The position numbers and the translations under genes were made by a program. A stretch of DNA of 64,000 bases from Candidatus Dojkabacteria bacterium. Lineage in GTDB: Bacteria; Patescibacteriota; Dojkabacteria; SC72; JAFGCJ01. This document shows, in pieces, positions 2,335 through 48,433 of this stretch (positions within the stretch are counted from its first letter, which is position 1; each line of letters opens with the position of its first letter). The DNA lies in the NCBI GenBank assembly GCA_016932785.1, contig JAFGCJ010000001.1, positions 10,909-74,908 on the forward strand. Direction: 5' to 3'. Under the pieces are notes generated by a model, which made no database searches, was not told the origin of the DNA, and saw nothing but the letters and a program-made list of their open reading frames with translations.

Positions 2335-3666
2335 ATGGCAAATGCAAACGTTCCACCTCAAAATGTCGATGCAGAGAAATCCGTTCTAGGTTCAATTCTC
2401 ATGGGAAAAGATGCCCTTATTAAAGTGGCAGAATTTCTTTTACCGGAGCATTTCTATGATCCAAAGCATCGAGATATTTATGATGCTACTATGGAGCTTT
2501 TTGACGAAGGCCTTCCTGTTGATATTGTGACTCTAGCTGATAAGCTAAAGAGCAAGAAGAAACTTAGAAGAATTGGAGGGAGATCATATCTGACTGAATT
2601 GGTTGAGAATGTTCCGACGGCGGCACATGCAGAAGATTATGGGCAAATTGTTAAAGCTCTGAGTACTCGTCGGAGTCTGATTTCTGCAGCTTCGAAAATA
2701 AATGGTGTAGCATTCGATGAAGAAAGAGATATTGCTGATATTCTGGATGAGTGTGAGCAGGAGTTGTTTTCAATTTCTCAGGCAAGCCTTCGTGAGAAAT
2801 TTATTCATATACGTGAGCTCCTCAAGGATGCCTATGAGCGTGCGGAAACTATTGATCAGAAAAAAGACAAATTGACCGGAGTTCCAAGTGGATTTAAGGT
2901 ACTTGATAATATTTTAGGTGGGTTCCAGCCTTCGGATATGGTAGTGCTTGCGGCACGCCCATCCGTTGGTAAAACTGCCCTTGCTTTGGATATAGCCCGC
3001 CATGCTTCGGTAGTCGAGAAGAAGAAGATTGCCTTCTTTTCACTCGAAATGTCTGATATGCAGCTTATGGATCGTATGCTTGGAATGCAGGCGAGGGTCC
3101 CTTTCTGGGATATGAAAATGGGGAAACTTAAGGATGAGGCATTTGAGAGAATAGCTGATGCTATGGGACAACTGGCTGAGGCTGAAATTTTTATCGATGA
3201 TAAGCCTGGGCAAAGTGTTATGGAGGTCCGGACCAAGGCCCGTAGATTGCAGCTGGAACAGGGCGTTGATTTGGTAGTCGTTGACTATATGCAGCTGATG
3301 CACTCTCGCAATCTTGAGAATCGTGTCCAGGAGGTATCTGAGATATCTATGGGCATGAAGAATCTGGCACGTGAATTAAAGGTGCCGGTGCTTGTTCTGT
3401 CACAGCTGTCGCGTGCAGTTGAACAGAGAGCTGACAGAATACCTCAGCTTAGTGATCTTCGTGAGAGCGGCAGTATTGAGCAGGATGCCGATGTTGTAGT
3501 CTTTTTGCACAGGGAGGAACAATATAATCCTGACACGGATCGGAAAGGGATTGCGGATTTGATTATATCTAAGCACAGAAACGGTCCAACGGGGAGGTAC
3601 GAACTTGCGTTTGTTAAGGAGTTGGGTAGCTTTAGGAATTTAGAGAAGAAGAGGAAAGAGGAGTAG
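2335..3666 (+). CDS. dnaB: Replicative DNA helicase DnaB
   Basis: PPQNVDAEKSVLGSIL (DnaB N-terminus), GFQPSDMVVLAARPSVGKTALAL (Walker A), VVVDYMQLM (Walker B) and SGSIEQDADVVVFLHRE. Confidence 0.95.
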   Translation: MANANVPPQNVDAEKSVLGSILMGKDALIKVAEFLLPEHFYDPKHRDIYDATMELFDEGLPVDIVTLADKLKSKKKLRRIGGRSYLTELVENVPTAAHAEDYGQIVKALSTRRSLISAASKINGVAFDEERDIADILDECEQELFSISQASLREKFIHIRELLKDAYERAETIDQKKDKLTGVPSGFKVLDNILGGFQPSDMVVLAARPSVGKTALALDIARHASVVEKKKIAFFSLEMSDMQLMDRMLGMQARVPFWDMKMGKLKDEAFERIADAMGQLAEAEIFIDDKPGQSVMEVRTKARRLQLEQGVDLVVVDYMQLMHSRNLENRVQEVSEISMGMKNLARELKVPVLVLSQLSRAVEQRADRIPQLSDLRESGSIEQDADVVVFLHREEQYNPDTDRKGIADLIISKHRNGPTGRYELAFVKELGSFRNLEKKRKEE

Positions 3667-3722
3667 TCTTTTCTGGGGATTTTGTAGCTTTCGGGTTTCA
3701 CTTATTCGGGCTGGTATAAGGC

Positions 3723-6059
3723 TTGATTTTGGGGTACAATAAAGCCCATATTGTTTTACTAAGATGTAATCAGATTAAAACCGTGTCAGCTTCAGTTGAT
3801 GGTTCAGATCTGCCCGGTGTCTCTCAGGATGGTCATGTATTATCTGATGTTCTAGGTCCTGTCGGACCTCATCCCGATTCACTTCCCGGCGAAATTTTTG
3901 TATCTATTGAACAGCGCAGAGATTCATCCCCGGAAGCAATCTTTGCTGCTAGGGTAGATCTTCTTAAGGCCCTGGAGCCTATGGGTGTATCCGGTTTTGG
4001 TACAGAAGAAGAAGGTAGAGATTTTCTGGTGGAGGTTTTTGATGGAACCCTTGAAATGCTCAGATGCTGGCAGGACAGATTAGACGAATCGGCAGTGCTT
4101 GAGTTTCATAGGTGTGCTATCTCTATTTTCCCTGAATCAGAACTACCTCTAAGGATAGCAGAGTGGATGAAGGGCTTTTCGAGGATACATGCTTTGATAG
4201 AAACAGCAGGTGCCCAGCAAAATCCTGCACTTATGGCTAGGGTGCACCGTGAAATTATATTTGAATATGCCGTGAGGGCTCAGAGGTGTCCAAATTTGTT
4301 GTGGCCTCTTGAGCCGTCGATATCTAGGAGGGATGAACAGTGTATGGGGTTCAATAGAGTATTAGAACACCTAGCCCGGACGGTAGTTGAAAGAATGCCG
4401 TACTATGCTACATTTATGGCGCTTCCGGCCATAGAGGAAATAAATGATGTTGATATGAGAAGTCGAACTATTGTTGCATTGGTTGAAAGGTTAAGAAGAA
4501 GAAACATTGGGAGTAGTGAGCCTGCGGAAAAGCTGGCTCTGTTTGAATTAAGAAATTTTTTACTTGCGAAACTTTTTTCTGGTGAGGATGGAACAGAGTC
4601 AGCAGATTCTCGTGCTGCAATTGCCTCATTTGCCGTTGCTGCTTTAGAGGATAGGGGTCATTCAATGCCGTCGGCATGGGTTTCCCGATACCAGAGGGAA
4701 TATAAAAGTCTTGCGGATAGTGGAAAAAGAGCTGATCGGATTAGGGCACTAGCCGATATTGGGTGGATATGGCCGGGCTCGGATACTGCCTTAGGATATG
4801 CGACTAGACTTTGGGAATCTGGGGTTTTTAGTGATAAATGGAAGAGAGTAGAGCTTGCTATGTCGGTAGTAGATGCCGGAATAAGCATCGGTCTCGTAAG
4901 AAACCCTGTTTATCTTATGGGTGATTTATTGAAAAAAGCCAGAAGGTGGGAATACAGAGGTGGGGTGGGTCCGCGCGCTGAAGCAGTTGACAGGGTGGCT
5001 GAAAGGTTTTCTCTGACTTGTGCGTTACTGGTGAGATCTCAGGCCGGTCTGATACAAGATAGGGATCTTTCCCAGAGAGTGCTGCGTGATGAAGATGATT
5101 CAATGGAGCTCTCTTATAAGGTGCTTCATCGTCTTTCAACCCGTATTAAAGGCTTTGCTCGGGAGGGTATTATGATGGATCAGGCAAGAATGAATCTGGC
5201 AACCTCTGCCGCATGGCTTGGAGATAGAAAAATATTTGAGGAGGCTCTTGAGAGTGTTACGGAGCCTGACGTGATACTTCCGTATATTCCCGGGATTATT
5301 GAGGCGTGGGCCTGTAGAGGTGAGTGGGAAACGGCAGTAAAGATTTATGAGATGTGGTTCGAGGATATTGAGCCGAGTGTAGTAGCGGAAATTAGCGATT
5401 ACAGCAGAATAGAACTGCAGGCAAGAAGCACGATGCTTTATGTTAGAAGTCTTTTTGGGGCTAGTTGTGCACGCGAGGAGGGAGATGTCCGTCCGGAAAA
5501 TACTGTGGTTAAAGAATTATGGTTGGATCCTGAGAAAGAAAGTGCCATGGCTGATATTGCGGGTCTGATAGAAGCCGAAATTGACTTTTGGCTGGCCAGG
5601 CTAGAAGGTACTTTGCCTGAAGGGGTACAGCCTCGGGGAGGATATTTTACCCCTAACAATACTAGTGTAGACAATAGCGCACTTAAAAAATACCTTGTGT
5701 ATAAAACAGCTCTGGATGTGGACGGCATTGAATTTGAAGGTCAAGCAGCAAGGGCTGTTATTATTTTCACGCAAAGGGCACGGTCCAAAGGTCCTATCTG
5801 GCAAAAGGATGCAAGTAGACGAGCTATAACCTGGGCCAGAGTGTCAATTTTCATTGAAAAACCTGAAGCAGAATCAGAGGAGGGTTCCAAGGATCCGGAT
5901 TTGGAGTTTAGGCTTTCTTCTTTGGCTAATATCTCTGATATTTATGAAGGCAGACAGAGAAATGGCAAACCCTTTCCCGAAGTTGCACTTAAGATGCGTA
6001 CGGCTCTAACGGATATCTTTGATTCTATTAGAGCTAGATCAAATATAGCTCTAAAATAA
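3723..6059 (+). CDS. Large hypothetical protein (about 760-778 aa), predicted helical; paralogous C-terminal segment shared with the next ORF
   Basis: Long uninterrupted ORF with visibly higher G+C than dnaB. The start is uncertain (TTG at 3723 or GTG at 3783). I recognise no domain. Confidence 0.6.
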   Translation: MILGYNKAHIVLLRCNQIKTVSASVDGSDLPGVSQDGHVLSDVLGPVGPHPDSLPGEIFVSIEQRRDSSPEAIFAARVDLLKALEPMGVSGFGTEEEGRDFLVEVFDGTLEMLRCWQDRLDESAVLEFHRCAISIFPESELPLRIAEWMKGFSRIHALIETAGAQQNPALMARVHREIIFEYAVRAQRCPNLLWPLEPSISRRDEQCMGFNRVLEHLARTVVERMPYYATFMALPAIEEINDVDMRSRTIVALVERLRRRNIGSSEPAEKLALFELRNFLLAKLFSGEDGTESADSRAAIASFAVAALEDRGHSMPSAWVSRYQREYKSLADSGKRADRIRALADIGWIWPGSDTALGYATRLWESGVFSDKWKRVELAMSVVDAGISIGLVRNPVYLMGDLLKKARRWEYRGGVGPRAEAVDRVAERFSLTCALLVRSQAGLIQDRDLSQRVLRDEDDSMELSYKVLHRLSTRIKGFAREGIMMDQARMNLATSAAWLGDRKIFEEALESVTEPDVILPYIPGIIEAWACRGEWETAVKIYEMWFEDIEPSVVAEISDYSRIELQARSTMLYVRSLFGASCAREEGDVRPENTVVKELWLDPEKESAMADIAGLIEAEIDFWLARLEGTLPEGVQPRGGYFTPNNTSVDNSALKKYLVYKTALDVDGIEFEGQAARAVIIFTQRARSKGPIWQKDASRRAITWARVSIFIEKPEAESEEGSKDPDLEFRLSSLANISDIYEGRQRNGKPFPEVALKMRTALTDIFDSIRARSNIALK

Positions 6060-6114
6060 AGAAAACTACAGGATAGATACCCTAGTTGGGAGTAATTTTT
6101 AGAAGAGAAAAACC

Positions 6115-7875
6115 ATGAGTGCAGGAATGACGGCTGGCGAAACAGGTGGCGGAGAGGCTACTGCCTCCTTGGCTCCTCTTAGTGATGAGATTGATGGATT
6201 AATGGCAGATGAGGGTAGGAATGGTACTGAAAATCGGCATGTTACTTTAGAATCACTTGCGGCTGACTTGGAAAGTCTTGACGACCTTGGACCCGAGGAA
6301 AGGATTCGGGCCAGAATTGCCTTGATTGATGCCATGAGTTTTGATGATTCCTTAACACAGGAAAGGGTAAGATGTCCTGGGGTTGACGTTCGAGGCCTAT
6401 TTGAAGGTGCTATTGATTGCCTTGATGGGATGGAGCCATTTCCTGGGAGATATCGATTTGGGAATGAGCTTCATGATCAGGCCTTGAGGTTGTATCGCGC
6501 TGGTGCTCTTAGAGATATTCCCGACCAGATATTAGAGCATCTTAGTGAGTTTCATAGGATAGAGCGGCTTGAGGAAACAGCACGAAGAATTGGTCGAGGT
6601 GGTGCACTGGTGAGAGCTATGGAGGAGCTGGCAAGTGTGGAGCAGAGGATGATTATGGGGGCTGCTGCTGCTATACATAGTGATGAGGAAATTCGACGTC
6701 AGATGGATGTGATTGAACAACTGTATTCTGGGTTGGCAGTTGCGGCTACTGATAGTCTTGATCTTAACTATGCTCCGTGGGCTATTCCTTTTCTAGCTAA
6801 AGTTAGAGATCCTAGAGTAGCTATACCTACAGCCATACAGGTGACTAAGAATTTGCTTAGGTATGAGGGATCACCGTTGGCATCGTGGGTAGCGGGACGT
6901 CTTTTATTTCAAGTGAGTCAATCTATTAATTGGGCAGGCGATGATAAAGCACGACCGAGAAGTATACAATATGATGATATTGCGTCTGTGGCCTCACTTT
7001 CCCAGCGTATAGACTATTCAGCTGTAGTCCCTTATCGTGAAATGATCGATAAGGCGGCACTAATATTGAAGGAACCTCGCGATGGAATGCCTAATGTTAC
7101 AGTAATTGCTAATGAAGTTAGATATGCTGTAGCTACAGGACAACTAGATTTGCTGGATGGAATATCGGAAAAAATAATTGGTACGAGAATGACTCATCGG
7201 GATAGGGTAGACCTTACTTCTTGGGCCTCATCTGAATTAATGAAGGCAGGCCATTTTCATGAAATAATTGCATTATGTCATGACCTTATCGGTAGAAACC
7301 CTAGGCGTCTTTTACGTTCTGAAAATCCAAAGATATGGACCTTGGATGTTGTTTGTGAGATTGCTTGTTCTTTTTCCAGAGATTGGACTAAGGCATGTCT
7401 TGGTCTTACACGTGATAGGGTGCACGCAGCGTTGGTTAGGGAGTATAGAGAAGGTGTTCCGAGAAGTTTTCTCGATGGAGTATTAAAGCAGGTTAGAGAT
7501 CTGGAAATACATGGATCTGCTGAAGATGCTGATGAACGGCGCTATACTATGATGCAGTGTAGGCATTTTCTTGCTAAGACGGCAGCATGGGTGGGCGAGG
7601 AGGATTTACTGCTTGGATTGGTTGAGTATAGTGGAAGTGATCCTTTGTTTTGGGAGTCTGTTCCAGAGATAATCTATGCTTGTGAGTGTAGAAGAGACCA
7701 TGGTTTGGCCATTAGGATTTATTCGATTGTCTTTGGTCGATTTTGGAGGGGCGATGCGGATAGTTCTGATGGGTTTAGGCTTTCTGAATTTCTTTCGCGG
7801 TGCGGTATAGCAAAGGCCCAAATGGAATGGGAGGAAGCTTTGGCAAGAGAGAGGGGACCGTACGGTATTCTCTAG
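6115..7875 (+). CDS. Large hypothetical protein (586 aa), a partial paralog of the 3723-6059 product
   Basis: LAKTAAWVGEEDLLLGLVEYSGSDPLFWESVPEIIYACECRRDHGLAIRIYSIVF aligns by eye with LATSAAWLGDRKIFEEALESVTEPDVILPYIPGIIEAWACRGEWETAVKIYEMWF of the upstream ORF. I recognise no domain. Confidence 0.6.
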   Translation: MSAGMTAGETGGGEATASLAPLSDEIDGLMADEGRNGTENRHVTLESLAADLESLDDLGPEERIRARIALIDAMSFDDSLTQERVRCPGVDVRGLFEGAIDCLDGMEPFPGRYRFGNELHDQALRLYRAGALRDIPDQILEHLSEFHRIERLEETARRIGRGGALVRAMEELASVEQRMIMGAAAAIHSDEEIRRQMDVIEQLYSGLAVAATDSLDLNYAPWAIPFLAKVRDPRVAIPTAIQVTKNLLRYEGSPLASWVAGRLLFQVSQSINWAGDDKARPRSIQYDDIASVASLSQRIDYSAVVPYREMIDKAALILKEPRDGMPNVTVIANEVRYAVATGQLDLLDGISEKIIGTRMTHRDRVDLTSWASSELMKAGHFHEIIALCHDLIGRNPRRLLRSENPKIWTLDVVCEIACSFSRDWTKACLGLTRDRVHAALVREYREGVPRSFLDGVLKQVRDLEIHGSAEDADERRYTMMQCRHFLAKTAAWVGEEDLLLGLVEYSGSDPLFWESVPEIIYACECRRDHGLAIRIYSIVFGRFWRGDADSSDGFRLSEFLSRCGIAKAQMEWEEALARERGPYGIL

Positions 7876-7966
7876 GTGTAGATGAGAGAGACGTATGTTT
7901 CTTCGCTGTTGACTTTATCACTTCAGATTTATAATATGAAAACAGACTAATCTGACGATATTATCC

Positions 7967-10900
7967 ATGTCTGGGGATTCACTTTATTCATCTGGAGTTT
8001 CAGCAGAAAAATATTCTGGTAATCTTGACCGTGGGGATAGTACTTCCAGTGTGTCTAGCGAAGAGTCTGAAGAAGGTTATGAGGCATTGGTTGCTGGTAA
8101 TGTTGATCAGCAACGGGTCGCTGCTATGACAAGACTTCATGAAGGTTTTGTTTCTCAATTGGAGGCTCTCGATGAGCTTCTGGTTGATCCTTTTGCTGAA
8201 ATTGTATCGAGGGGAATGTTTCGTGAACCCTTTGATGCAATGATGGCAAACTTTCGGGGACGTCAATTATCCTGTATCCAATTTCTTGCCCGTGAGGGGG
8301 TGACGTTAGAAAACTTGGCTCAGATAGTCCTGGGTGGTGTCTTGGTTCATGAGTCTAAAGCATATTCCCGTGAAGAAGATGTGTTGTCCATGATAGGAGA
8401 GAATTTTCTTACTCAAATGTCTGGATTGTATGGATCTAGTAAAGCGGAGATTCCTGGAGACCTGGAGACAGATGTATTTTTGATTGGTGGTGGTGCGGCA
8501 TTGGGGGTGATTCTGGATATTCCGGAGCCGACCGGCCGTGCAGACATGGAATCTATAGAATATCTTGTTAATACTTTTGGGATTAGGATCTTTAATGATG
8601 AAGGTGAGGAAATACCGATGGAGGAGGACGGTGAGATGACTCTAGAACAGGCTCAAACGGTATGGAGAACGCTTCAGTCATGGAGGAGTCTGACGGTAGA
8701 TCGTTCCATGCTTCCCACTGAGTTTAAGGAAACTTTTCCTGGAGATGTTGTTGTATTCTTTGGTTATCCCGATGAACAATCAGTAAGACATGAGTCAGAG
8801 GAGGTCTTTCATCACTACCTCAGGGATCAAATGGTTTCCTATCTCAAAGAACAGGAATCTACAGCTTTAGTTCCGGATGTGTCATATACTCCTAGGACGA
8901 TATCGGAAATAGTTGGGATGACAGATGAAGACTGTCTTCGTCTATATGGTAGAGGCAGAAGAGAAGTGATAGAGGGTATTAGAGATGCTGATCGTTCAGT
9001 TTTAGCTTGGAGTATTGCTGCTCCGGCGTTATCTGAAATTAGTTCAATTCTGAGTGAGGATGAGGAACTTGTTGAGTTGGAGGGAGTTAGATTTATTGAG
9101 CAGCTTGCCTCTAGAAGTATTGGTTCCTTGGGTATACTTCCTGGGTCTGAGAGAATGGCAGCAATCAATGGCTTATCGAAGGAGGATATAGCGAAAATTC
9201 TTGAGGCATATGTTGAGGCGTATACGTTAGTTCGGGCTGTTCGTGGCAAGGTCTGTGAATTATTGCAGGAGAAAAATCCTAGAGAAGTGGCCAATCTGCT
9301 TCATGCATATTTTGGAAACCCTGTTAATTTTTTGCTTCATGGGGAGCGGGAGGAACTAGGAAGAGCCGATGGAAGTGACAGTTATTCTCGTTTTGAGGCT
9401 CAGAGGAGAAGAAATCTTGACGCGCTGACTACTTCTTTGGCAGTTTTGAAAAGGGACCAAATTCCGGAAGAAGGTCCAGAGGTTGTTAGAGGAGTTCTCG
9501 GGCTGGAAGATTTCTCAGAAGGTGAGGATGAGGGTGCTAAACCTGAGCAATATTATGTGGATACGAGGTTTGAGAGTCGATTTATTCAAGATAAAGGGAC
9601 TATTCCTGCGTGTGGTGCGGTGGTTGAGTTTGATCTTATCCCTTCGCATGGAACGACTGTGGCTATTACAATAGGAGAGGCTGGTGCTGGCGGTGGGATG
9701 AGTTCCTCGAGGAAAGCGGCTCTTGCAGCAGAGGTGAGTGGTGCGCCAGCAGGATTCAGAAGGTACGTAATTTTAGGTAAGGGCGATAGGAGGACAGATA
9801 TCTATATGGATACCGACGGACAGGTTGTTAGGTACTATAGATCTAATGCAGGCGCTGCTGACCAGAGTCTTAGTGAGCTAGAATTTCAACAAGCGTGTTC
9901 GACACATCCCGAATCCAATATGTTCTTCCTAAAAGAGGCTACGGTTGCTCTTCCTGGTGGTGAGGCGTTTGCACAGTCGTTGATAGATCTGTCTGATCTT
10001 CCGTTTACCTTCGTTCCAAAAAGTGTCTTCGAGAGACTTGATGCCGAAGGAAGAACTGAGCTTCTAGATAAAAATATCTTTCAGTTGAGTATTGCCGTTC
10101 AGCGTTTATTGCAAAACCTTGATATCCATAATGCATCTTCGTTTCTAGATAATAGGTTTACCATTGGAAGGGTAGAGCTCTCACTTCAGGAGTATATTAG
10201 AAGGATTGTTGTTTCTGCTTATAGAGCTGACTATTCTAGAGCAACGCGGTATTTTGGAACAGCTTCCAATGGTCTTGCACAAAGGCTTCATATTAGGTCT
10301 GCTGATTTAGATCAATACAGTTCTGTTGTCTATGATGGTGCTTCTGAGGAGCCTTTTGCAGTTCTTCGCAATGCTAATCAAAGTTTAGTTGATGGGGTGG
10401 AGCAGTTTGTGCTTCAGGTACTTGAGCCTGAGTTGCAGGCCGCAATTAGGCGTGCAAGTAGAGAGGCTGCTGTGGGTAGAGTTGTTGCTGGTACCGGGAT
10501 GGCGGAAAGTGTTGTGCCGGTAGCTGCGTCTACGTTGAATCATGTAGGATTGGGAGATAAGGGTGGATCGAGACGAATACTGGTGACATTGTTTCCATGG
10601 ATAGAGAATATGGTTGGCGATCTAGCGGACTTTCGTGATCAGTTGAAGGCTTCTCCCTCGAGAGATCAGTTGCTGAAGATAGGATTAAGTCTTTGTAATG
10701 CGCTGGGAGGAGTTGCACATGAGGGACTGAACGTTGTCCATCGAGATGTGAAACCACAGAATGTCTTGATTGTAGGATCAAATATGGAAAAGGTTTTGCT
10801 TGGAGACTTTGGGATTTCTGTTCATAAGGGTTCGACTATGACAGTATCTGATCTGGACTCAAGTTCAAGTGCCGGCAGGACAGCACTGATGGGGACTCCT

Positions 10901-12628
10901 GGTTATGTTGCGCCTGAAGTGCTACCAAATGTTCTACAGCTTAAGGGAGAAACCAGTCTGGTGGTGACCGAAGCTGTTGATGCGTATGGATTGGGAGCAA
11001 CTTTATTTGCTGTTGCCGTTGGTTGTGTTGTTGATGAGGCTGGAGATCCTCCTATTCCGGGAGTTATAAATGTGATGACTTCTGATCATTCAGACCAGGT
11101 CGAGGAGGCTAGACGGGCGGCTATAAGATCAAACCTTGCGAGTACTCCCATGGATCCTCAAATGATAGAGATTGTCGTTCGACTCCTCGAGATTGATCCA
11201 GGTGAGAGACAGACAAATCTCCTCGCTGTTGCTGAGGAATTGAGAAGGATTTCAAATCCTTTTGAAGATTTAGGGTTGATGGATGGAGCCTCATTGAGCG
11301 ATTTAGATAGAGCACAGTCATTAGACGAAGTAATTCTGTTTTTGAGAATGTCTGTGCTTCCTAGCACTGAGAGGACAAAGGCTTTAAGTGAGATAGCCTC
11401 TGGACTCGATGAGGTATCGCGCTATGCTGCTGCTCGAAGAGTGGGCGTTGAACAGGGATTAGCTGAAATGGATAGAATTTTGGTCAGGGCTGTGACAAAT
11501 GGGAATAGAAGGACAGTGAGAAATGACCTTTCATCTGCAACTGGAGCCTATCTGGCATCAGTGTCGCTGGGAAGCCGTTTCGATCAGTTCTATGCATCAG
11601 CTGTAGCAATATTTACACGTGTTTCCGGACAACTTAGAAAGCTTCAATTAGAGGGAAGATTAACAGACCCACTTATTAATACTTTACAGAGCATCTTTGG
11701 CCGGTTTGCCAGGGAAGATAGACGAATTATTAATGTAGGTGAGTTTATGACTAAGAGAGGCTTGGAAGATAGAATGGGCTATCTTCATAGTTCACGGGAG
11801 GGCAGGTTTTTTGTCGATGACGAAAGTTTGGCAGGAATGTGTGTCAGTTTACAGTCTGAATTTAAAGCTAACAGACATCTTTTCCTCTCTGAGGTTGTTG
11901 TAAGGTTAACCTCTCTGCAAGGAGAAGTCGATTTTTCAAGCTGGAGAAATAATGTACTTTCTGGTGATCAATATGCTTCAAGTAATCTAACGCGTCATAG
12001 AGACCTTGGAAGAGTAATTAGCGACATAGTGGTTTCTCCTGCAAGAAGAGAAGAGCTGGAGAAAGATTTATCTAAAGTAGTGGAAGAACTCAGAAGTGCC
12101 GTGCCCGATGACGCGTACAGACTAACAGAGGTGCTGAGAAACCTCGTGGCTGTATATGTTTGGGTTAGCGGACATGGTATGCAAAGACAGCTTTCGTATG
12201 AAGCTAGAGACCTTAGAGATTATGCAGATAGGGAACATGAAAAAGGTTATGGGGCTATGTATTTATCGAAGGGTATTACAGAGGTATCGGATCCGTTTTA
12301 TAAAAGATTCAGCTGGCTTCGTACGCTACCTGAATTACGTAATCGGCTTTTGTCTGAATCTGGAGATCAAGGTGTAGAGGACATAGTTAGGAGGGCATTT
12401 AGTGACGCCGTTGGCGGAGTTAGTGGGGAAATTATTGATTATTGGAATGAATGGCGTAATGCTGTGGCCGAATATCTGTCGAAGAGCCTTTCGAGAAAAA
12501 GAATTAATGAAATTTTATACCAAAGGGATGAGCGTGCTCAGCTAAGAAGGATTGTTGGTAGTATTTCAAGAGAAATCGATGACTTTAACAAAGAGCATCG
12601 AAGAATATTGAGGGACCTTACTTCTTAG
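7967..12628 (+). CDS. 1553-aa protein with an embedded Hanks-type Ser/Thr protein kinase catalytic core and large uncharacterised flanking regions
   Basis: VVHRDVKPQNVLI (catalytic loop, His codon at 10739), LGDFGIS (DFG), GTPGYVAPE (APE) and DAYGLGATLF. About 860 aa N-terminal and about 450 aa C-terminal carry no recognisable domain. Confidence 0.8.
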   Translation: MSGDSLYSSGVSAEKYSGNLDRGDSTSSVSSEESEEGYEALVAGNVDQQRVAAMTRLHEGFVSQLEALDELLVDPFAEIVSRGMFREPFDAMMANFRGRQLSCIQFLAREGVTLENLAQIVLGGVLVHESKAYSREEDVLSMIGENFLTQMSGLYGSSKAEIPGDLETDVFLIGGGAALGVILDIPEPTGRADMESIEYLVNTFGIRIFNDEGEEIPMEEDGEMTLEQAQTVWRTLQSWRSLTVDRSMLPTEFKETFPGDVVVFFGYPDEQSVRHESEEVFHHYLRDQMVSYLKEQESTALVPDVSYTPRTISEIVGMTDEDCLRLYGRGRREVIEGIRDADRSVLAWSIAAPALSEISSILSEDEELVELEGVRFIEQLASRSIGSLGILPGSERMAAINGLSKEDIAKILEAYVEAYTLVRAVRGKVCELLQEKNPREVANLLHAYFGNPVNFLLHGEREELGRADGSDSYSRFEAQRRRNLDALTTSLAVLKRDQIPEEGPEVVRGVLGLEDFSEGEDEGAKPEQYYVDTRFESRFIQDKGTIPACGAVVEFDLIPSHGTTVAITIGEAGAGGGMSSSRKAALAAEVSGAPAGFRRYVILGKGDRRTDIYMDTDGQVVRYYRSNAGAADQSLSELEFQQACSTHPESNMFFLKEATVALPGGEAFAQSLIDLSDLPFTFVPKSVFERLDAEGRTELLDKNIFQLSIAVQRLLQNLDIHNASSFLDNRFTIGRVELSLQEYIRRIVVSAYRADYSRATRYFGTASNGLAQRLHIRSADLDQYSSVVYDGASEEPFAVLRNANQSLVDGVEQFVLQVLEPELQAAIRRASREAAVGRVVAGTGMAESVVPVAASTLNHVGLGDKGGSRRILVTLFPWIENMVGDLADFRDQLKASPSRDQLLKIGLSLCNALGGVAHEGLNVVHRDVKPQNVLIVGSNMEKVLLGDFGISVHKGSTMTVSDLDSSSSAGRTALMGTPGYVAPEVLPNVLQLKGETSLVVTEAVDAYGLGATLFAVAVGCVVDEAGDPPIPGVINVMTSDHSDQVEEARRAAIRSNLASTPMDPQMIEIVVRLLEIDPGERQTNLLAVAEELRRISNPFEDLGLMDGASLSDLDRAQSLDEVILFLRMSVLPSTERTKALSEIASGLDEVSRYAAARRVGVEQGLAEMDRILVRAVTNGNRRTVRNDLSSATGAYLASVSLGSRFDQFYASAVAIFTRVSGQLRKLQLEGRLTDPLINTLQSIFGRFAREDRRIINVGEFMTKRGLEDRMGYLHSSREGRFFVDDESLAGMCVSLQSEFKANRHLFLSEVVVRLTSLQGEVDFSSWRNNVLSGDQYASSNLTRHRDLGRVISDIVVSPARREELEKDLSKVVEELRSAVPDDAYRLTEVLRNLVAVYVWVSGHGMQRQLSYEARDLRDYADREHEKGYGAMYLSKGITEVSDPFYKRFSWLRTLPELRNRLLSESGDQGVEDIVRRAFSDAVGGVSGEIIDYWNEWRNAVAEYLSKSLSRKRINEILYQRDERAQLRRIVGSISREIDDFNKEHRRILRDLTS
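10540..11250 (+). other. Ser/Thr kinase-like domain inside the 1553-aa ORF (approximate boundaries)
   Basis: Runs from GLGDKGGSRRILV (a possible Gly-rich loop) to IDPGERQTNLLAVAEELRRI. The C-lobe motifs are intact. I found no VAIK-type beta3 lysine segment. Confidence 0.65.
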
Positions 12629-12818
12629 GGTGCTGTTTTGTAAGGGGTCTCTCATCGGGTGGTTGCTGTAGTTCATAATATAAAGAATATTAGTGGGAAT
12701 GATTTGGATAGCAACTTTATCAAATATTCCTTTTGCCCAAACCGTTAAAATCTGCTATATTTCAGCCTAGAACACATACTCGATACATGGGCGATTTTGT
12801 CTTCATCTCATGGCCGCG

Positions 12819-12835
12819 AACTATAAGTTAGCGGG
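12819..12835 (+). promoter_or_regulatory. Conserved 17-mer AACTATAAGTTAGCGGG, copy 1, with a -10-like TATAAG 10 nt upstream of the tRNA-Leu 5' end
   Basis: Exact 17-mer also present at 12953-12969 and 49342-49358. The spacing to the downstream gene start is identical for copies 1 and 2. Confidence 0.5.
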
Positions 12836-12837
12836 TG

Positions 12838-12921
12838 GGGCGAGTGGTGGAATAGGCAGACACGCGGGTCTCAAAAACCCGTCCTAGCAATAGGGTGAGG
12901 GTTCGATTCCCTCCTCGCCCA
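12838..12921 (+). tRNA. tRNA-Leu (anticodon CAA), type II with a long variable arm; CCA not encoded
   Basis: Manual fold. Acceptor stem GGGCGAG/CTCGCCC with discriminator A. Anticodon stem CGGGT/ACCCG with loop CT-CAA-AA. Long variable arm CCTAGCAATAGGGT. T arm GAGGG-TTCGATT-CCCTC. Confidence 0.85.
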
Positions 12922-12952: not shown

Positions 12953-12969
12953 AACTATAAGTTAGCGGG
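12953..12969 (+). promoter_or_regulatory. Conserved 17-mer AACTATAAGTTAGCGGG, copy 2, immediately upstream of efp
   Basis: TATAAG lies at 12956-12961 and the efp ATG at 12972, with only 10 nt between them and no SD sequence. This implies a leaderless or near-leaderless transcript. Confidence 0.5.
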
Positions 12970-12971: not shown

Positions 12972-13535
12972 ATGGCAGTGCTATCAAACACGGATCTTCG
13001 TCGTGGAGTAGTCTTTCAGGACGGGGGAGAGATTTTTGTTGTTCTCAATTATGCTTCCAGTGTTAGGGGTCGGGGAAGTTCCATTGTTAAGCTGAAAATT
13101 CGTAATCTTAAAACAGGCAATGTTCTGGAAAAATCTTACAGAGCTAATGAAAAAGTAGAGTCTGTGGATACACAAAGAACAAATGTTCAGTATCTTTACT
13201 CGGAAGGGGAAAGTGCTAACTTTATGAACTCTGAGACATTTGAGCAATTTTCTATTCCTATGGAGGAAGTCGGAGAATCAGTGAAGTATCTCAATGAGGG
13301 CGAGAAGGTGATCGTGTTACTTGTTGAGGGCAAACCCGTTTCTATAGAAATACCCAAGAAAGTAGAGATGGAGATTAAATATACCGAGCCTGCAGTTAAG
13401 GGTAATACCGCAACAAATGCTATGAAAAAGGCAAAACTGCAGAATGGCCTCGAAGTAGATGTGCCCCTATTTTCAAAAGTTGGAGATAGGATTAAAATTA
13501 ACACCGATACAGGAGAGTATGTCTCTCGGGCATAA
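12972..13535 (+). CDS. efp: Translation elongation factor P
   Basis: NTDLRRGVVFQDGGEIFVVL, the KLKIRNLKTG loop region, YTEPAVKGNTATNAMKKAKLQNGLEVDVPLF. Length 187 aa. Confidence 0.93.
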   Translation: MAVLSNTDLRRGVVFQDGGEIFVVLNYASSVRGRGSSIVKLKIRNLKTGNVLEKSYRANEKVESVDTQRTNVQYLYSEGESANFMNSETFEQFSIPMEEVGESVKYLNEGEKVIVLLVEGKPVSIEIPKKVEMEIKYTEPAVKGNTATNAMKKAKLQNGLEVDVPLFSKVGDRIKINTDTGEYVSRA

Positions 13536-19180: not shown

Positions 19181-19239
19181 TATAGGATTCTCCGCTTCCA
19201 TTGGACATTTACAACACCTCAATATATACTGTTACCACT

Positions 19240-21831
19240 ATGGAAATAGTATTTGTTGGATTGTTTGTAATAGGGCTCGGAATACTTGTATACCTTATCT
19301 TTTTCCGAAAAAAAGAGGAAGAAATTGTATTTGAAGAGGTAAGGGATCCCGTTGTTATACATATTGCTGTCCCGAGACAAAACGATAAAACTCCTCTTGC
19401 GGCTGAGCAGATGTTTGCGTCTCTTCATGGTATTTTGAGAGATAATAAAAGATCTACTGATTTTCTAAGTTTTGAGATTGTTTCAGATAAGGGGCAGGGG
19501 GTTAATTTCTATGCTGTTGTTCCGGGGTATCTTGTGAAATTTGTTGAAGGGCAGATCTATGCTCAATATCCAAATGCCGAAATAGCTGTGGTCAACGATT
19601 ATATTGATGTTGCGGTTTCTGGTGCTGATCCGTCAACGTACAGTCCGTACATTTCTACAGGGGAAATAGAGTTAGCAAAAGACTTCATTTTTCCAATAAA
19701 GACCTTTCGTGATTTCGATGTAGATCCACTTTCTGCTATCACAAGTGCTCTTTCGGCGGTAGAGGATGGAGAACAAGTCATGATTCAGATTTTAATACGT
19801 CCTGTGGCCAATTACTGGCAGGATTGGGCTAAAGAGTATATTGAAGCCGTTCGTGAAGGGAAAGACCCTTCTGTAAAGTCTGGTGGGTTGTTGGGTTCAA
19901 TGGCTAAGGGGGTGTTTAGTGTTATAGTGGGTGCTCTGGATGTGTTTATGGGACCTTCCTCGGATGGATCCGGTAGGCCTGAGCAGAAGCCTGTAGTAAA
20001 ATTACTACCAGGGCAGGAGGAGGAGCTTACCCAAATTAGTGAAAAGATGACAAGGGTCGGTTTTGAAGTTGCGGTTAGAGTAATTATAAAGGCATTGGAT
20101 GCAGGTAGGTCCGAACAGTTGCTGAGAGATGTTATAGCATCGTTTAAGCAGTTTACCACGGCTAATCTGAACGGATTTACTCAGTCCAAAGTTAATAAGA
20201 CTGGGTCTCAAATGTATGATGAGTATCGTAGTAGATATTTGAGTGCTGACTGTACAGATATTCTTACAATCTCTGAGCTTGCATCCTTATATCATCTTCC
20301 TAATATTTCAGTTGAGACTCCCAATATTAGCTGGTCAAGAGCAAAGAAGTCTGAGCCTCCAATGAATCTTCCTGTTGAAGATGCGACAATTTTTGCTGAG
20401 ACTGACTTTAGGGAGAGGCGTCAACAGTTTGGTATAAAAAAGGGAGATAGAAGACTTCACTTCTATTTGTTGGGGAAAACAGGCAGCGGCAAGTCTACAG
20501 TTTTTAAGAATATGATAACCTCGGATATTCTAGCTGGGGAAGGTGTGGCGGTCATTGATCCACACGGAGAGCTGGTAGAAGATCTCCTTAATTTTATTCC
20601 CTCAAATAGAATAAATGATGTTGTGTATTTTGATCCTGCAGATGTTGATAATCCAATAGGTTTTAATCTCCTGGAGCTTGATGATCAGGATCAGAGGGAT
20701 ATGGTTGCGGATGGGGTGGTTGAGGTTTTCAAAAAACATTTTGAGTATTCCTGGGGGCCGAGACTTCAATATGTTCTCACAAACGCTATTTTGACTATTC
20801 TGGAGGCTCAAGGACAGACGTTATTGGCAGTTCAGCGTATGCTTATTGATAAAAATTTCAGGAAGTTTGTGTTGAAGCAGGTAAAAGATCCGCTTCTTTT
20901 GAAGTTCTGGAATGACGAATATGCCAAAATGGAGACAAATTCCCGGCTTATTACAGAGGCTGTTGCGCCTATTCAGAATAAGGTTGGGAGGTTTCTAGCC
21001 TCTGCGACAATTAGAAATATTGTTGGTCAGGTTAAGTCTACAATCAATCTTAGAGAGATTATGGATGAGGGGAAAATTTTTCTTGTAAACCTGTCGCAGG
21101 GTAGACTCGGAGAGGAGAGTAGTGCTTTGCTTGGTGGAATGATCGTGACGAGACTTCAGACCACTGCTATGGAGAGGGTTGATACGGCTATGGAGAAAAG
21201 GCGTGACTTTTTCATGTTTGTTGATGAGTTTCAAAACTATGCTACGGACTCTTTTGCAAAGATATTGTCTGAGGCGCGAAAGTATCGGCTATGTCTGCAT
21301 CTTACCCATCAGTATATTGACCAGTTGCCGGAGAATGTCCGTACTGCCATATTTGGAAATGTTGGAACACTGGCGAGCTTTGTTGTCGGTCCAACTGATG
21401 CGATGGTTCTTGCCAAGGAGTTTGCTCCCGTCTTTGATGAAGAGGATATGGTGTCACTCGAGCGATACGCAATGTATCTCAAGTTGTCAATTGATGGTAT
21501 GGTATCAATACCGTTTAGTGCAAGGTCTCTAGATGTGAGGTACGAGCCTGGAAGCAACAGAGAAACGGTACTTCAGGTTTCCCGGGAGAGATATGGACGA
21601 CCTAGAGATGTTGTTGAGGATAAGATTAATCGTTGGTCCGGACAGACATATAGTGAGAAGGGAAATAGATCTGTAATGAGTGATGGAGAAGACCGGGAAA
21701 AAGGACGAGATTCAGAAAGAAAAGGGACCCAAGGTGATAATCGTAGTAAATCTGGAGGTTCAAATAAACGTAGCAACAATAATAGATCTTCTAGTGGTGG
21801 AAAAACCAGATCCAAAGATCCGAATTCCTAG
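19240..21831 (+). CDS. Membrane-anchored TraD/VirD4/HerA-like (FtsK-HerA superfamily) P-loop ATPase
   Basis: N-terminal TM segment (EIVFVGLFVIGLGILVYLIFF), Walker A LLGKTGSGKST and Walker B FFMFVDEFQNY. The C-terminal tail is S/R/K-rich and low-complexity. The ATG at 19240 is preferred over the TTG at 19201. Confidence 0.65.
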   Translation: MEIVFVGLFVIGLGILVYLIFFRKKEEEIVFEEVRDPVVIHIAVPRQNDKTPLAAEQMFASLHGILRDNKRSTDFLSFEIVSDKGQGVNFYAVVPGYLVKFVEGQIYAQYPNAEIAVVNDYIDVAVSGADPSTYSPYISTGEIELAKDFIFPIKTFRDFDVDPLSAITSALSAVEDGEQVMIQILIRPVANYWQDWAKEYIEAVREGKDPSVKSGGLLGSMAKGVFSVIVGALDVFMGPSSDGSGRPEQKPVVKLLPGQEEELTQISEKMTRVGFEVAVRVIIKALDAGRSEQLLRDVIASFKQFTTANLNGFTQSKVNKTGSQMYDEYRSRYLSADCTDILTISELASLYHLPNISVETPNISWSRAKKSEPPMNLPVEDATIFAETDFRERRQQFGIKKGDRRLHFYLLGKTGSGKSTVFKNMITSDILAGEGVAVIDPHGELVEDLLNFIPSNRINDVVYFDPADVDNPIGFNLLELDDQDQRDMVADGVVEVFKKHFEYSWGPRLQYVLTNAILTILEAQGQTLLAVQRMLIDKNFRKFVLKQVKDPLLLKFWNDEYAKMETNSRLITEAVAPIQNKVGRFLASATIRNIVGQVKSTINLREIMDEGKIFLVNLSQGRLGEESSALLGGMIVTRLQTTAMERVDTAMEKRRDFFMFVDEFQNYATDSFAKILSEARKYRLCLHLTHQYIDQLPENVRTAIFGNVGTLASFVVGPTDAMVLAKEFAPVFDEEDMVSLERYAMYLKLSIDGMVSIPFSARSLDVRYEPGSNRETVLQVSRERYGRPRDVVEDKINRWSGQTYSEKGNRSVMSDGEDREKGRDSERKGTQGDNRSKSGGSNKRSNNNRSSSGGKTRSKDPNS

Positions 21832-27054: not shown

Positions 27055-28428
27055 ATGCTTTTAAACTACTATAAATTAACAGATCAGGATGAGTACATAC
27101 TGGAGTTGCAGAATAACAACTACAGTAATAGGACGATATACAACTATGACCGCGATTTAAGCATTTTCGCAAGGTTTCTTGATCATCAGGAGGTGGATTT
27201 TGATAAGGTTGATAAGAAGACGATTACTTATTATAAGGGATATCTGAAATCCGGAGAGCATCTGTCTGTGCATCCAAAAGATAAGGAGTTGCTGGATGAG
27301 GCACTTGAGAGGGTGTCGAAATTGGTTTCGGAAGAAGAAATCGACTCCGAGGAGAGGCATAATGCGGAAAACGCTGATATAATAGCAAAAAACAGCCAAA
27401 ATCGCTCTAGAGGGTCTAGAACACGCGAAAACTATTTTCAGGAGATACAACATATCCAGAAGACCTTAAAAATGTTGAAAAATAGGCCAGATCGTGCTCC
27501 GGGGCTTCCAGGGGGTATGCGAAGGACAGCTTTGTCCAGTTCGGGTTCGTCCGGGGGTGGACTCAGCAGTCGAAGTATCAATCGGATGTTGTCATCCGTT
27601 CGTTCATACCTGAAATGGCGGGTGGATTTCGATATGGATGTTCCAATTCCGCCCGAGGCAATAAAATTGATAAAAACAGAACGAAAAAAACCGCAAGTCG
27701 CTGAATTAAAAGATTTAGTTGCATTAATTGAATGTCCATCGAAATTTGAAAAAGATCCGCGGGTAGCTGCAAGAAACCGCGCTATGCTGGAGTTATTGTT
27801 CAGTACAGGCATGAGAATTTCTGAACTTGTGGGTTTGAATATGGATCAGATCAATGAGCAAGGTAAGATTTTCATTATGGGAAAAGGGAAAAAAGAGCGT
27901 TTTGTGTATCTGACGCCGAGGGCTACGCATTATTTGGTGGAGTACCTGAGAGTAAGGGATTTGGCTTTAGATGAGGTAAAAACTGATGATTCTGTTAGAG
28001 ACATAGATTTGACTGAGGGTGGTGATAAAGGCCGTATTGACGGTGATTCTAAAGGTAGTAAAGGAGTAGGGGCCCCTACTCCGCCCGATCTGAAGGGATT
28101 TTCTAGGGTTGCCGCTGTGCGAAAATCCGGTGAAGCGTTGTTTATCCCCTACCGCGGGGGCCGTGAAGGCAGTGTCGGATCAAGAATTTCTACGAATTAT
28201 TTACAGGAAAAAATCGCTGAATACCGGCAAAGACTTGGGATTGTTGTACCTACTTCAGCGCACAGTCTGAGACATGGTTTTGCTACGTACCTGGCAGAAA
28301 ATGGTGCTAGTCCGGCCGCAATTCAGGTTTTGCTTGGTCACGAGAGTTTACAGACGACGACTAGATATGTGCATGCATCTGATAGGTTTGCACAGGAGAC
28401 TCATGAGAAAAAGCATCCGTTGAGGTGA
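27055..28428 (+). CDS. Tyrosine recombinase/integrase (XerC/XerD-like) with low-complexity insertions
   Basis: N-terminal SAM-like core-binding motif (NYSNRTIYNYDRDLSIFARFL), GMRISELVGL (Arg), HSLRHGFATYL (H-x-x-R) and LLGHESLQTTTRYVH (His, Tyr nucleophile). At 457 aa it is longer than typical Xer proteins. Confidence 0.85.
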   Translation: MLLNYYKLTDQDEYILELQNNNYSNRTIYNYDRDLSIFARFLDHQEVDFDKVDKKTITYYKGYLKSGEHLSVHPKDKELLDEALERVSKLVSEEEIDSEERHNAENADIIAKNSQNRSRGSRTRENYFQEIQHIQKTLKMLKNRPDRAPGLPGGMRRTALSSSGSSGGGLSSRSINRMLSSVRSYLKWRVDFDMDVPIPPEAIKLIKTERKKPQVAELKDLVALIECPSKFEKDPRVAARNRAMLELLFSTGMRISELVGLNMDQINEQGKIFIMGKGKKERFVYLTPRATHYLVEYLRVRDLALDEVKTDDSVRDIDLTEGGDKGRIDGDSKGSKGVGAPTPPDLKGFSRVAAVRKSGEALFIPYRGGREGSVGSRISTNYLQEKIAEYRQRLGIVVPTSAHSLRHGFATYLAENGASPAAIQVLLGHESLQTTTRYVHASDRFAQETHEKKHPLR

Positions 28429-30552: not shown

Positions 30553-30588
30553 TAATTTGAGTGAGTTACATTTATTTCTGGCAGAGTT

Positions 30589-31872: not shown

Positions 31873-32025
31873 AGCTGTAGTAAATTTTCTTTACTTGTAG
31901 CAAATATTATACTGTTTTATCAGGTCGTGGTCAAGTTGATGTCAGTTTCAAGTCAAGGGGGTGGATATGTTAAGATAATGTTGTTAGAAAAGGAAATTCT
32001 TAGAGGCAACAATACTGAGCAGTTC

Positions 32026-32619
32026 TTAGTATAAATTCTGTTCTTTTATATACTCGTCGACCTTGGGTACAGGATGTTTGCCACCCTGTGACAGTATGGC
32101 CCTGATAAAGACGGAGGAGTCTCGTGAAATCTCGGGAATTATTTTGTAGTTGCCGGTTAGGTACATGGGATAGTTACCGGATGTTGAATTTCTCTGTACT
32201 ATGATATGTGAAATATGGCCAATATCTGTGTTATAACCATAATCGAATGAGTCAGAGCCGCAAACGATGAAGGTACTTATTTTTGAACTTTCCAGATCTT
32301 CTGATATCTTTGCAAACTCAATACTTTGGACTCCTAAGTCATAATTTTCGGGGCACAAAAGTATTTTCTCAGAAAGCGGAGAGTCCTCCGATAAGAGAGA
32401 AAGAAGATTTCTTCTGTGTTCGAGCGGAGCTAATCTGTTCTTTTTTCTTGGATTAAATGAATGTGGGCAGAAAACAAAGTAATCTGTATATTCTGCCAGA
32501 ATTTTCTCAGCAATTCGCAGATGTCCCATATGAGGCGGGTTGAAAGATCCTGCAAAGAATGCCACCTTTGACGGGGCAAGTTCTTTTATACTTTCCATGC
32601 TTGGAAGTGTTTTATTCAT
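32026..32619 (-). CDS. Nucleotidyltransferase of the NadD/cytidylyltransferase family (probable nicotinate/nicotinamide-nucleotide adenylyltransferase)
   Basis: FFAGSFNPPHMGHLRIAEKIL carries the (H/T)xGH motif. Length 197 aa. Confidence 0.6.
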   Translation of the reverse strand: MNKTLPSMESIKELAPSKVAFFAGSFNPPHMGHLRIAEKILAEYTDYFVFCPHSFNPRKKNRLAPLEHRRNLLSLLSEDSPLSEKILLCPENYDLGVQSIEFAKISEDLESSKISTFIVCGSDSFDYGYNTDIGHISHIIVQRNSTSGNYPMYLTGNYKIIPEISRDSSVFIRAILSQGGKHPVPKVDEYIKEQNLY

Positions 32620-32687
32620 TGGATTCCTGCGGTTTAAGGGTTTTTTGTGCTACTTTGGTCCCTCTTAAAATTGGGGCCAATGCAATT

Positions 32688-33146: not shown

Positions 33147-33334
33147 TTCTCTTTCTAGTTGAATTTACTATTGAGGATGATAGTATGCCTGGAGTCTTTC
33201 AGCTTGATGTGATCTGGATTCAATTCTGACGGGGGAAATTGTGTGAAAGTGCCGTTACGATGGGGTTTCGGTGGTGACTCCAGTATTTTGATCGTTGTCT
33301 GACAGATGGGAGGATTGAGGATTTAGGATAGTAA

Positions 33335-35617: not shown

Positions 35618-35648
35618 ATTTCAGTATAGTAGTTTTTATATATTTCTA

Positions 35649-48382: not shown

Positions 48383-48433
48383 AATTTCGTCCTTAAGGAC
48401 TCGTCAGTAGAGCAAATTAAGCTCTAGATTCTC

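Follow-up and report, generated by a model that had tools for sequence, protein, structure and literature searches.

A 9-kb accessory insertion encoding a giant protein with a Hanks-type kinase core at the dnaB/tRNA-Leu junction of a Candidatus Dojkabacteria genome

A three-gene block at the dnaB/tRNA-Leu junction

The subject of this work is a 9-kb block of three open reading frames (ORF1, ORF2 and ORF3) in the genome of a Candidatus Dojkabacteria bacterium, which belongs to the Candidate Phyla Radiation (CPR; Patescibacteria). The block lies in a 64,000-nt stretch of contig JAFGCJ010000001.1, which was analyzed at its full length and is referred to below as the window. Its products carry the annotation "hypothetical protein" (JW710_00090, JW710_00095). 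An earlier note, made from the sequence letters, had described three same-strand ORFs of 778, 586 and 1553 amino acids (aa) between dnaB and a tRNA-Leu gene, with gaps of 55 nt (ORF1-ORF2) and 91 nt (ORF2-ORF3), and this layout is confirmed:

2335-3666, + strand: dnaB (replicative helicase), conserved left flank (Pfam DnaB_C E=1e-101, DnaB E=1e-35)
3723-6059, + strand: ORF1, 778 aa, TTG start (ORF list)
6115-7875, + strand: ORF2, 586 aa (ORF list)
7967-12628, + strand: ORF3, 1553 aa, predicted giant soluble Hanks-type kinase (ORF list, Pfam)
12838-12921, + strand: tRNA-Leu(CAA), conserved right flank (ARAGORN; Rfam 57.8 bits)
12972-13535, + strand: efp (elongation factor P), conserved downstream neighbour (Pfam; orthologues in the related genomes L002 and L004, see below)

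The three ORFs are genuine genes, because (i) they are very long given a genomic G+C of 43%, (ii) they show the same coding pattern of G+C at the three codon positions (GC1 > GC2 > GC3) as their neighbours, (iii) one of them holds a kinase domain, and (iv) the sequence recurs identically in an independent Logan assembly. The Logan contig matches window positions 1-22628 with zero mismatches, and the block is therefore not a misassembly. For ORF1 the gene caller prefers a start at 3729, which gives a product of 776 aa.

To place the block in its genomic setting, we compared the junction with three related genomes (L002, L003 and L004) recovered by a DnaB-anchored scan that kept one genome per species; their DnaB proteins are 76%, 60% and 82% identical, respectively, to the product of the window gene. 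The order of the flanking genes is kept in all three: sortase, lactamase_B, dnaB, tRNA-Leu(CAA), efp and a DZR protein, onward to a VirD4-like gene and YebC, with tRNA-Leu(CAA) downstream of dnaB as in the window. What differs is the interval from dnaB to tRNA-Leu:

Window: the 9-kb block; no other difference at the junction
L002: 283 nt, gene-free; no other difference at the junction
L004: 154 nt, gene-free; an HNH-domain gene (376 aa, L004 1195-2325) between the tRNA gene and efp
L003: genes for a short-chain dehydrogenase (SDR) and a TrmB-family regulator (L003 6498-8085); no other difference at the junction

In a tblastn search of the block proteins against 60 fetched loci, none of the three found a match. 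Given the conserved flanks and the absence of the block from these loci, the dnaB/tRNA-Leu junction is variable and the block is lineage-specific. The 9-kb block is thus a lineage-specific accessory insertion, a clean gain of genes at a conserved site. The suspicion voiced in the earlier note, that the block is an accessory module and not a part of core metabolism, holds up in all the checks proposed there, including the synteny comparison, in which the block is missing from the corresponding site in all three relatives.

Base composition does not point to a foreign origin. The G+C content of the block (0.444-0.454) exceeds that of efp and the downstream genes (0.38-0.41) and equals that of dnaB (0.444), so that its description as G+C-richer than its flanks is correct on one side of the block and not on the other. 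The excess is carried by GC2 (0.42-0.45 versus about 0.35), while GC3 (0.34-0.36) falls within the range of the window (0.33-0.43), the synonymous-usage log-likelihood (-1.11 to -1.14) is inside the range of the other genes, and the Arg codons are 60-75% AGR, as is usual for the host. The slightly raised G+C is accordingly due to amino-acid composition, which is poor in Lys and rich in Arg and Ala, and not to foreign codon usage.

Recent acquisition of a mobile genomic island, with integration at tRNA-Leu, would account for a block that adjoins a tRNA gene and is missing from relatives, at a junction that varies elsewhere too (the HNH-domain gene of L004; the SDR and TrmB genes of L003). The details of the site make such an island extremely improbable. 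Scans of 3667-12837 with Pfam and NCBIfam revealed no recombinase, the block neither contains nor adjoins an integrase or transposase gene, and the nearest tyrosine recombinase gene is at 27055-28428. No direct repeats flank the block, and the 25-mer at the 3' end of tRNA-Leu occurs as a single copy in the window even when up to 3 mismatches are allowed, which leaves no duplicated tRNA 3' end. The block also sits 5' of the tRNA gene, not on its 3' side; GC3, synonymous codon usage and Arg codon choice are all host-like; and the phage, plasmid and viral-contig collections hold nothing similar apart from generic kinase cores. The adjacency to tRNA-Leu pointed out in the earlier note is real, without the integrase, the att-like repeat or the 3' position of a tRNA-targeted island.

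Further genes recognized by Pfam and NCBIfam in this neighbourhood encode a sortase, LspA, RluD, a LytR_C protein, the VirD4-like ATPase and YebC, a gene content in keeping with the assignment to Dojkabacteria. The window contains three identical copies of a 17-nt motif, AACTATAAGTTAGCGGG (12819-12835, 12953-12969 and 49342-49358, + strand), where about 0.01 copies would be expected by chance; two of the copies stop 2 nt short of tRNA-Leu and of the efp ATG, respectively, and a variant, TATAGGATAGCGGG, is present at 49466. The motif resembles a -10/start-site promoter core, from which near-leaderless transcripts would arise.

The kinase core of ORF3 and its family

As judged by a word-indexed protein search, ORF3 matches only itself. 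An exhaustive phmmer search with its non-kinase N-terminus (aa 1-880) against 1.84 billion cluster representatives recovered, in addition to ORF3, three proteins with E-values of 5e-25 to 8.5e-11, and with match spans on ORF3 of 229-602, 235-520 and 151-468:

P0004: 1500 aa, from a JGI metagenome
P0005: 1356 aa, NTU46696.1, annotated as Candidatus Roizmanbacteria
P0006: 1424 aa, GCA_040960175.1

All three have a centrally placed Pkinase domain and align end to end with ORF3 at 20-26% identity; residues 229-1242 of ORF3 match residues 195-1166 of P0004 in one continuous stretch. They have the three-part architecture of ORF3 and a similar length, with invariant N-domain and kinase motifs in common. 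Judging by their sequences, ORF3 and P0004-P0006 are a rare, unnamed four-member family of giant kinases of 1356-1553 aa. The label of giant ORFans given to all three block proteins in the earlier note consequently suits ORF1 and ORF2, which have no detectable homologues, and does not suit ORF3, which has three distant full-length ones. Searches of phage, plasmid and viral-contig collections with ORF3 returned generic kinase cores only, a scan of metagenome contigs a single generic kinase, and in our literature searches no paper on such kinases in CPR bacteria was found.

Three parts can be delineated along the ORF3 protein:

8414-9526, + strand: N-domain (aa ~150-520), where the family is best conserved (phmmer, family alignment)
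10439-11251, + strand: kinase core, helix alpha-C to subdomain XI (aa ~825-1095; Pfam, PDB phmmer, profile alignment)
11264-12625, + strand: C-domain (aa 1100-1553), weakly conserved in the family (18-21% identity)

The embedded Hanks-type kinase core, already recognized in the earlier note, matches Pfam Pkinase (PF00069) at 58.3 bits against a cut-off of 31.7 bits (E=1e-15, aa 900-1083), and the match covers profile positions 98-253, i.e. the C-lobe. The catalytic motifs are in place: HRDVKPQN (925-932), DFG (947-949), APE (982-984), the alpha-F Asp (D1005) and the Arg of subdomain XI (R1081). Invariant in all four family members are R926, D927, K929, N932, D947, G949, T972, D1005 and R1081. 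Among solved structures, the closest relative of the family profile is Mycobacterium tuberculosis PknB (2e-21), from PknB residue 97 onward, and a profile-profile alignment (hhalign) to PknB/PrkC/PKA (E=1.8e-28) reaches back to helix alpha-C. In this alignment E833, which is invariant in the family, pairs with the alpha-C Glu of PknB (E59). The invariant activation-loop residue T972 falls within one residue of PknB T171/T173, which are phosphosites of PknB. Because the alpha-C Glu, HRD, the Mg-binding Asn, DFG, APE and the activation-loop Thr are all kept, ORF3 is predicted to be an RD-type Ser/Thr kinase that would be turned on by phosphorylation of its activation loop.

Outside the catalytic core, none of the domains maps to a known family; the core itself belongs to the well-known Hanks-type superfamily. 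The N- and C-domains have no relative in the PDB or Pfam, even when family profiles are used, and no consistent match emerged when all family members were scanned with Pfam at E<=10. PDB matches of the N- and C-regions at E~0.15-2 (SidE/SdeA, Cmr6 and a designed scaffold) were dismissed as noise. In the four-member alignment the invariant residues of the N-domain include H275-E276-x-x-E279, Y327-G328 and A347-W348. ORF3 shows no transmembrane (TM) helix in a hydropathy scan, the highest 19-residue hydropathy value (1.81) being on the buried alpha-F helix of the kinase, and by eye, with no dedicated predictor, its N-terminus is not signal-peptide-like.

The genes for the homologues stand in different genomic contexts, the kinase is the only feature conserved across these loci, and no neighbour is common to all:

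P0004: followed by genes for a response regulator and a histidine kinase
P0005 (locus L064): preceded by the gene for a 1414-aa protein; between ftsW-murG-ftsQ-ftsA-ftsZ and ileS plus a second FtsW/RodA gene
P0006 (locus L066): adjoins small NTP_transf_2/Polbeta genes and a sortase gene

At L064 the gene for the 1414-aa protein (5619-9863), which has no Pfam match, is wedged together with that for P0005 between the ftsA/ftsZ cluster and ileS. We considered whether the 1414-aa protein could be an unsplit version of ORF1 plus ORF2 and rejected the idea, BLASTP, phmmer and hhalign all giving no similarity. At L066, P0006 is 5 kb from homologues of a 1226-aa ORFan and its GT2 glycosyltransferase neighbour (L066 2-4590), which in the window are encoded in that order at 43864-48382 (+ strand), 31 kb from ORF3; the two L066 homologues (phmmer E=3.5e-37 for the ORFan, 35% identity for the GT2) are adjacent on opposite strands.

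The affinity of the family profile to PknB, the presence in the window of a gene for a protein with PP2C and FHA domains (see below), and the position of P0005 between the ftsW-murG-ftsQ-ftsA-ftsZ cluster and ileS with a second FtsW/RodA gene raise the question of whether ORF3 is a housekeeping kinase of growth and cell division, an analogue of PknB/PrkC with a PstP-like PP2C and FHA, that came to lie at this locus by chance. For such a kinase wide conservation in the class would be expected, whereas the family counts four members among 1.84 billion representatives and is missing from the syntenic site in three relatives. Nor does ORF3 have the TM segment and PASTA repeats of these receptors: the PknB/Stk1 PASTA receptor model of NCBIfam (PknB_PASTA, NF033483) scores 44.4 bits against a cut-off of 450 bits, on the kinase core only. 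We consider a housekeeping role quite unlikely.

ORF1, ORF2, Lys depletion and a second locus

ORF1 is predicted to be soluble, with an isoelectric point of 5.3, and ORF2 is likewise acidic; both are Lys-poor and Arg/Ala-rich. A hydropathy scan detected no TM segment in either, and their N-termini do not resemble signal peptides by eye (again no dedicated predictor). In a word-indexed search of 5.8 billion proteins, each matched only itself. No above-threshold match was obtained in Pfam, NCBIfam, PADLOC or PHROGs, none in phage and plasmid genomes (tblastn) or viral contigs, and no ORF1- or ORF2-like gene was found at the loci of the ORF3 homologues. The two proteins are nevertheless related to each other through a short segment:

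5175-5360, + strand: ORF1 segment common with ORF2 (aa 485-546; BLASTP, shuffles, hhalign)
7549-7734, + strand: ORF2 segment common with ORF1 (aa 479-540; BLASTP, shuffles, hhalign)

The segments are 32% identical over 62 aa (BLASTP E=3e-6), give a Smith-Waterman z of 9.1 with a score that 0 of 300 shuffles reach, and are significant by hhalign over a stretch of ~62-65 aa (E=8.4e-5). They begin at nearly equal distances from the N-terminus. A second collinear stretch (ORF1 61-178 / ORF2 51-172) is weak (z=2.6, hhalign P=0.12), and the C-terminal parts show no similarity (z=-0.3). The proposal in the earlier note that the two are paralogs, built on a motif that is indeed present in this segment as written there, is thus upheld for the segment, while the demonstrably homologous share is about 8-11% of the proteins. 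The simplest reading of the sequences is that a gene of ~550-600 codons was duplicated in tandem and that the copies then diverged in a runaway manner, although the homology demonstrated is, strictly, that of the segment. A sub-threshold Pfam match of the ORF1 segment to ELYS (16.8 versus 28.8 bits) was dismissed as generic helical similarity, and kinship of ORF1 or ORF2 with the N- and C-domains of ORF3 or with other giant ORFans of the window was rejected, as no similarity was found.

The extremely fast divergence of ORF1 and ORF2, together with the variable spot and patchy distribution of the block, is also what one might see for a kinase-based anti-phage or abortive-infection system, in which the kinase would detect infection and then phosphorylate proteins of the host or of the phage, and ORF1 and ORF2 would be fast-evolving sensors or effectors. 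The top PADLOC matches of ORF3 are to kinases of defence systems (MADS mad6, 2e-18; the MkoA model of Mokosh, 2.9e-16; PD-T4-6, 1.2e-15), with which its core is similar at E=2e-18 to 1e-15, and there are further matches to NCBIfam MADS6 (2e-9) and a PHROG Ser/Thr kinase (3e-18); patchy distribution and variable genomic position are features of defence kinases as well. Moreover, the small NTP_transf_2/Polbeta genes next to P0006 are of a kind typical of toxin-antitoxin pairs. All defence-family matches are, however, confined to the generic kinase core (aa ~884-1097). For Mad6 (NF047741 / PADLOC PDLC04138) the PADLOC match covers ORF3 aa 884-1083 only, and MADS6 scores 36.6 bits against a cut-off of 460 bits. 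The known systems' partner genes are missing, the length of ORF3 is several times that of PD-T4-6-type kinases, ORF1 and ORF2 have no PADLOC match, no other defence gene adjoins the block, and neither a nuclease, protease or TIR domain nor any other effector domain came to light. P0005, for its part, sits between the ftsA/ftsZ cluster and ileS. In our judgement a defence function of this kind is unlikely.

The three block proteins have an unusual composition in common:

Lys: block proteins 2.0-3.6%, neighbouring proteins 8.1%
Arg: block proteins 8.4-9.9%, neighbouring proteins 5.8%
Ala: block proteins 8.2-10.6%, neighbouring proteins 5.4%

The ratio R/(R+K) is 0.72-0.83 in all three and at most 0.55 in 33 of the 36 other ORFs. 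For ORF3 the replacement is directional: at aligned basic sites, Arg in ORF3 faces Lys in a homologue 40 times and the reverse is seen 4 times, while Lys/Arg exchanges among the homologues themselves show no comparable bias (4:6, 5:4 and 12:4). The homologues have an ordinary content of basic residues (K 4.3-6.6%, R 4.6-6.6%), as compared with K 2.3% and R 8.4% in ORF3. A milder Lys-to-Arg bias is seen in housekeeping proteins when they are compared with those of L002 and L004 (45 to 22), and the window genome is G+C-richer than these two. Part of the Lys depletion is therefore genome-wide drift, which is strongest in weakly constrained proteins.

Such a composition could also be an anti-tagging adaptation of effectors that an episymbiotic CPR bacterium delivers into its host, in the manner of the Legionella LegK kinases. 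The low Lys content of the three proteins and the directional Lys-to-Arg replacement in ORF3 would fit, as would their giant size and lineage-specific nature, a faint match to NCBIfam LegK1 (E=0.009), and a gene for a possible delivery component:

19201-21831: VirD4-like coupling ATPase

The VirD4-like gene is kept in relatives that do not have the block, so the two are not linked, and the LegK1 match is not significant. No signal-peptide-like N-terminus (by eye) or known secretion motif was seen, and the bias in housekeeping proteins makes the Lys-to-Arg exchange partly genome-wide. Host delivery is hence very unlikely to explain the block.

The three remaining ORFs of the window with a high R/(R+K) all belong to one - strand locus, a second cluster of Lys-poor giants at 28438-42443:

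28438-30552, - strand: 704-aa ORFan
33335-35617, - strand: PP2C + FHA protein, 760 aa, candidate eraser/reader for ORF3 (Pfam)
35649-42443, - strand: 2264-aa ORFan (12.4% Ala)

This cluster is adjoined by the tyrosine recombinase gene (27055-28428) already mentioned, and none of its proteins is similar to the block proteins. The 760-aa protein matches Pfam PP2C_2 (1.7e-17) and FHA (8e-10; aa 672-735), and the NCBIfam Stp1/IreP PP2C model (1.9e-29).

Some further elements of the window lie apart from the block. A candidate type III hammerhead ribozyme at 48379-48434 (- strand) scores 42.5 bits with Rfam RF00008, below the gathering score of 48.5, and was for that reason not called in the whole-window scan; it covers the full model length with the CUGAnGAG and CGAAA core intact (E=1.5e-7 in a 1.4-kb search). 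Directly upstream of it on the - strand is a 235-aa ORF (48518-49225) with a G+C of 0.554, a GC3 of 0.63 and 88% CGN among its Arg codons. The ORF has no Pfam or NCBIfam match, and may be foreign DNA or not protein-coding. GC skew is +0.2 to +0.3 across the + strand genes (1-28 kb, 46-48 kb) and ~zero or slightly negative across the - strand genes, which suggests a strong purine bias of the coding strand on top of the replication skew.

A proposed giant-kinase signalling module and its relation to known systems

Taken as a whole, the observations are best explained, at a moderate level of confidence, by a lineage-specific accessory insertion that serves phospho-signalling by a giant kinase, together with ORF1/ORF2 and the PP2C-FHA protein. 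The block is inserted into the conserved sortase-lactamase_B-dnaB-tRNA-Leu-efp neighbourhood, with ORF3 as its anchor gene. ORF3 would be a soluble, probably cytoplasmic protein laid out as a conserved N-domain, a linker that may contain degenerate N-lobe elements, a PknB-like Hanks-type core and a helical C-domain. ORF1 and ORF2, which are specific to this genome and would be the products of a tandem duplication that are by now hardly recognizable as such, may act as partners, adaptors or substrates of ORF3, because the genes are co-oriented, are separated by short gaps in which no terminator is predicted, and have the unusual composition in common. In the 91-nt gap upstream of ORF3 there is one promoter-like site, which is a consensus match without evidence of function:

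7909-7937, + strand: promoter-like site TTGACT-17-TAATAT (consensus scan only)

PP2C and FHA partners read and remove phospho-Thr marks for other Hanks-type kinases, and the PP2C-FHA fusion protein encoded 21 kb off could do both for ORF3. The patchy distribution and fast evolution of the block point to a sensory or conflict-related role for the proposed module rather than to core physiology.

Comparison with characterized kinases underlines both the ordinary core and the unusual frame of ORF3. Like the PknB/PrkC-type Hanks Ser/Thr kinases of Gram-positive bacteria, of which PknB is its best PDB match, ORF3 has the alpha-C Glu, HRDxKxxN, DFG, the activation-loop Thr, APE, the alpha-F Asp and the subdomain XI Arg, and it resembles them from helix alpha-C onward. 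In PknB/PrkC the kinase is N-terminal in a membrane receptor, whereas in ORF3 it is central in a soluble 1553-aa protein with about 800 aa upstream and 450 aa downstream that have no known fold, with neither TM helix nor PASTA repeats, and with an unrecognisable Gly-rich loop and VAIK Lys. The mycobacterial PknB-PstP-FhaA/FhaB system provides a second parallel, as this genome also encodes a Hanks-type kinase plus Stp1/PstP-like PP2C and FHA domains. Here, PP2C and FHA are fused in one 760-aa protein, and its gene is not in an operon with the kinase gene but 21 kb away on the opposite strand; the functional link is putative. Finally, the best NCBIfam match of ORF3 is the class IV lanthionine synthetase LanL (NF038150; E=6.8e-15, aa 890-1192), in which the kinase is central as well; the match scores 54.5 bits against a cut-off of 650 bits, ORF3 contains no lyase or LanC cyclase domain (Pfam E<=10), and no precursor-peptide gene is evident.

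Several observations weigh against this proposal. First, hidden Markov model (HMM) and profile alignments did not place strands beta-1 to beta-3, the Gly-rich loop or the VAIK Lys anywhere in ORF3. Every HMM match to the kinase starts near aa 884, a greedy profile alignment places Q817 at the position of the VAIK Lys, and a weak BLASTP match to PknB (E=0.14) has Ser at the Lys position and no Gly loop. Of the Lys residues upstream of the core just two are invariant: K410, which lies in the N-domain, and K656, which is part of an h-h-h-K-E motif (h, hydrophobic); K656 and G571-x-G-G-G-M-S (571-577) are candidate N-lobe elements judged by their sequence, located ~180-260 aa upstream of E833. Furthermore, P0006 carries NRD and DLG. 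With the N-lobe elements unlocated, ORF3 may be a pseudokinase or may bind ATP in a non-canonical manner. Structure prediction with AlphaFold2 was too poor to help, with a predicted local distance difference test score (pLDDT) of 37.7 for aa 751-1140 alone and of 41.1 for aa 540-1110 with the four-sequence family alignment, and the N- and C-domains therefore yield no functional information. Second, the partnership of ORF1 and ORF2 with ORF3 is deduced from adjacency in one genome, and all three homologous kinases stand without such neighbours. Third, the PP2C-FHA gene is 21 kb from ORF3, and no such gene is near the ORF3 homologues.

A bolder version would join the block and the second Lys-poor locus into one previously undescribed, CPR-specific phospho-signalling system for conflict or host interaction. 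It would comprise a new giant-kinase family with a rebuilt N-lobe and two novel domains, a selective elimination of Lys, e.g. to escape Lys-directed tagging or modification by host or phage, and ORF1 and ORF2 as fast-evolving specificity subunits. We regard this combination as rather improbable.

Under the more conservative proposal of an accessory giant-kinase module, the novelty lies in an architecture not described before and in a small family that is new within a well-known enzyme superfamily; the accessory locus is, as the evidence stands, interesting and not exceptional. CPR genomes are small, and yet much of their coding capacity goes to giant proteins without an assigned function. The present locus would identify, within this set, rare giant soluble Ser/Thr kinases with a canonical C-lobe, an unrecognisable N-lobe and two large unmatched domains, and it contains a set of giant proteins that display strong directional replacement of Lys by Arg. 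If ORF3 has no canonical beta-3 Lys, it would be a further case of non-canonical ATP anchoring, and if it is active, it would open a way into regulated phospho-signalling in a lineage that has not been cultivated.

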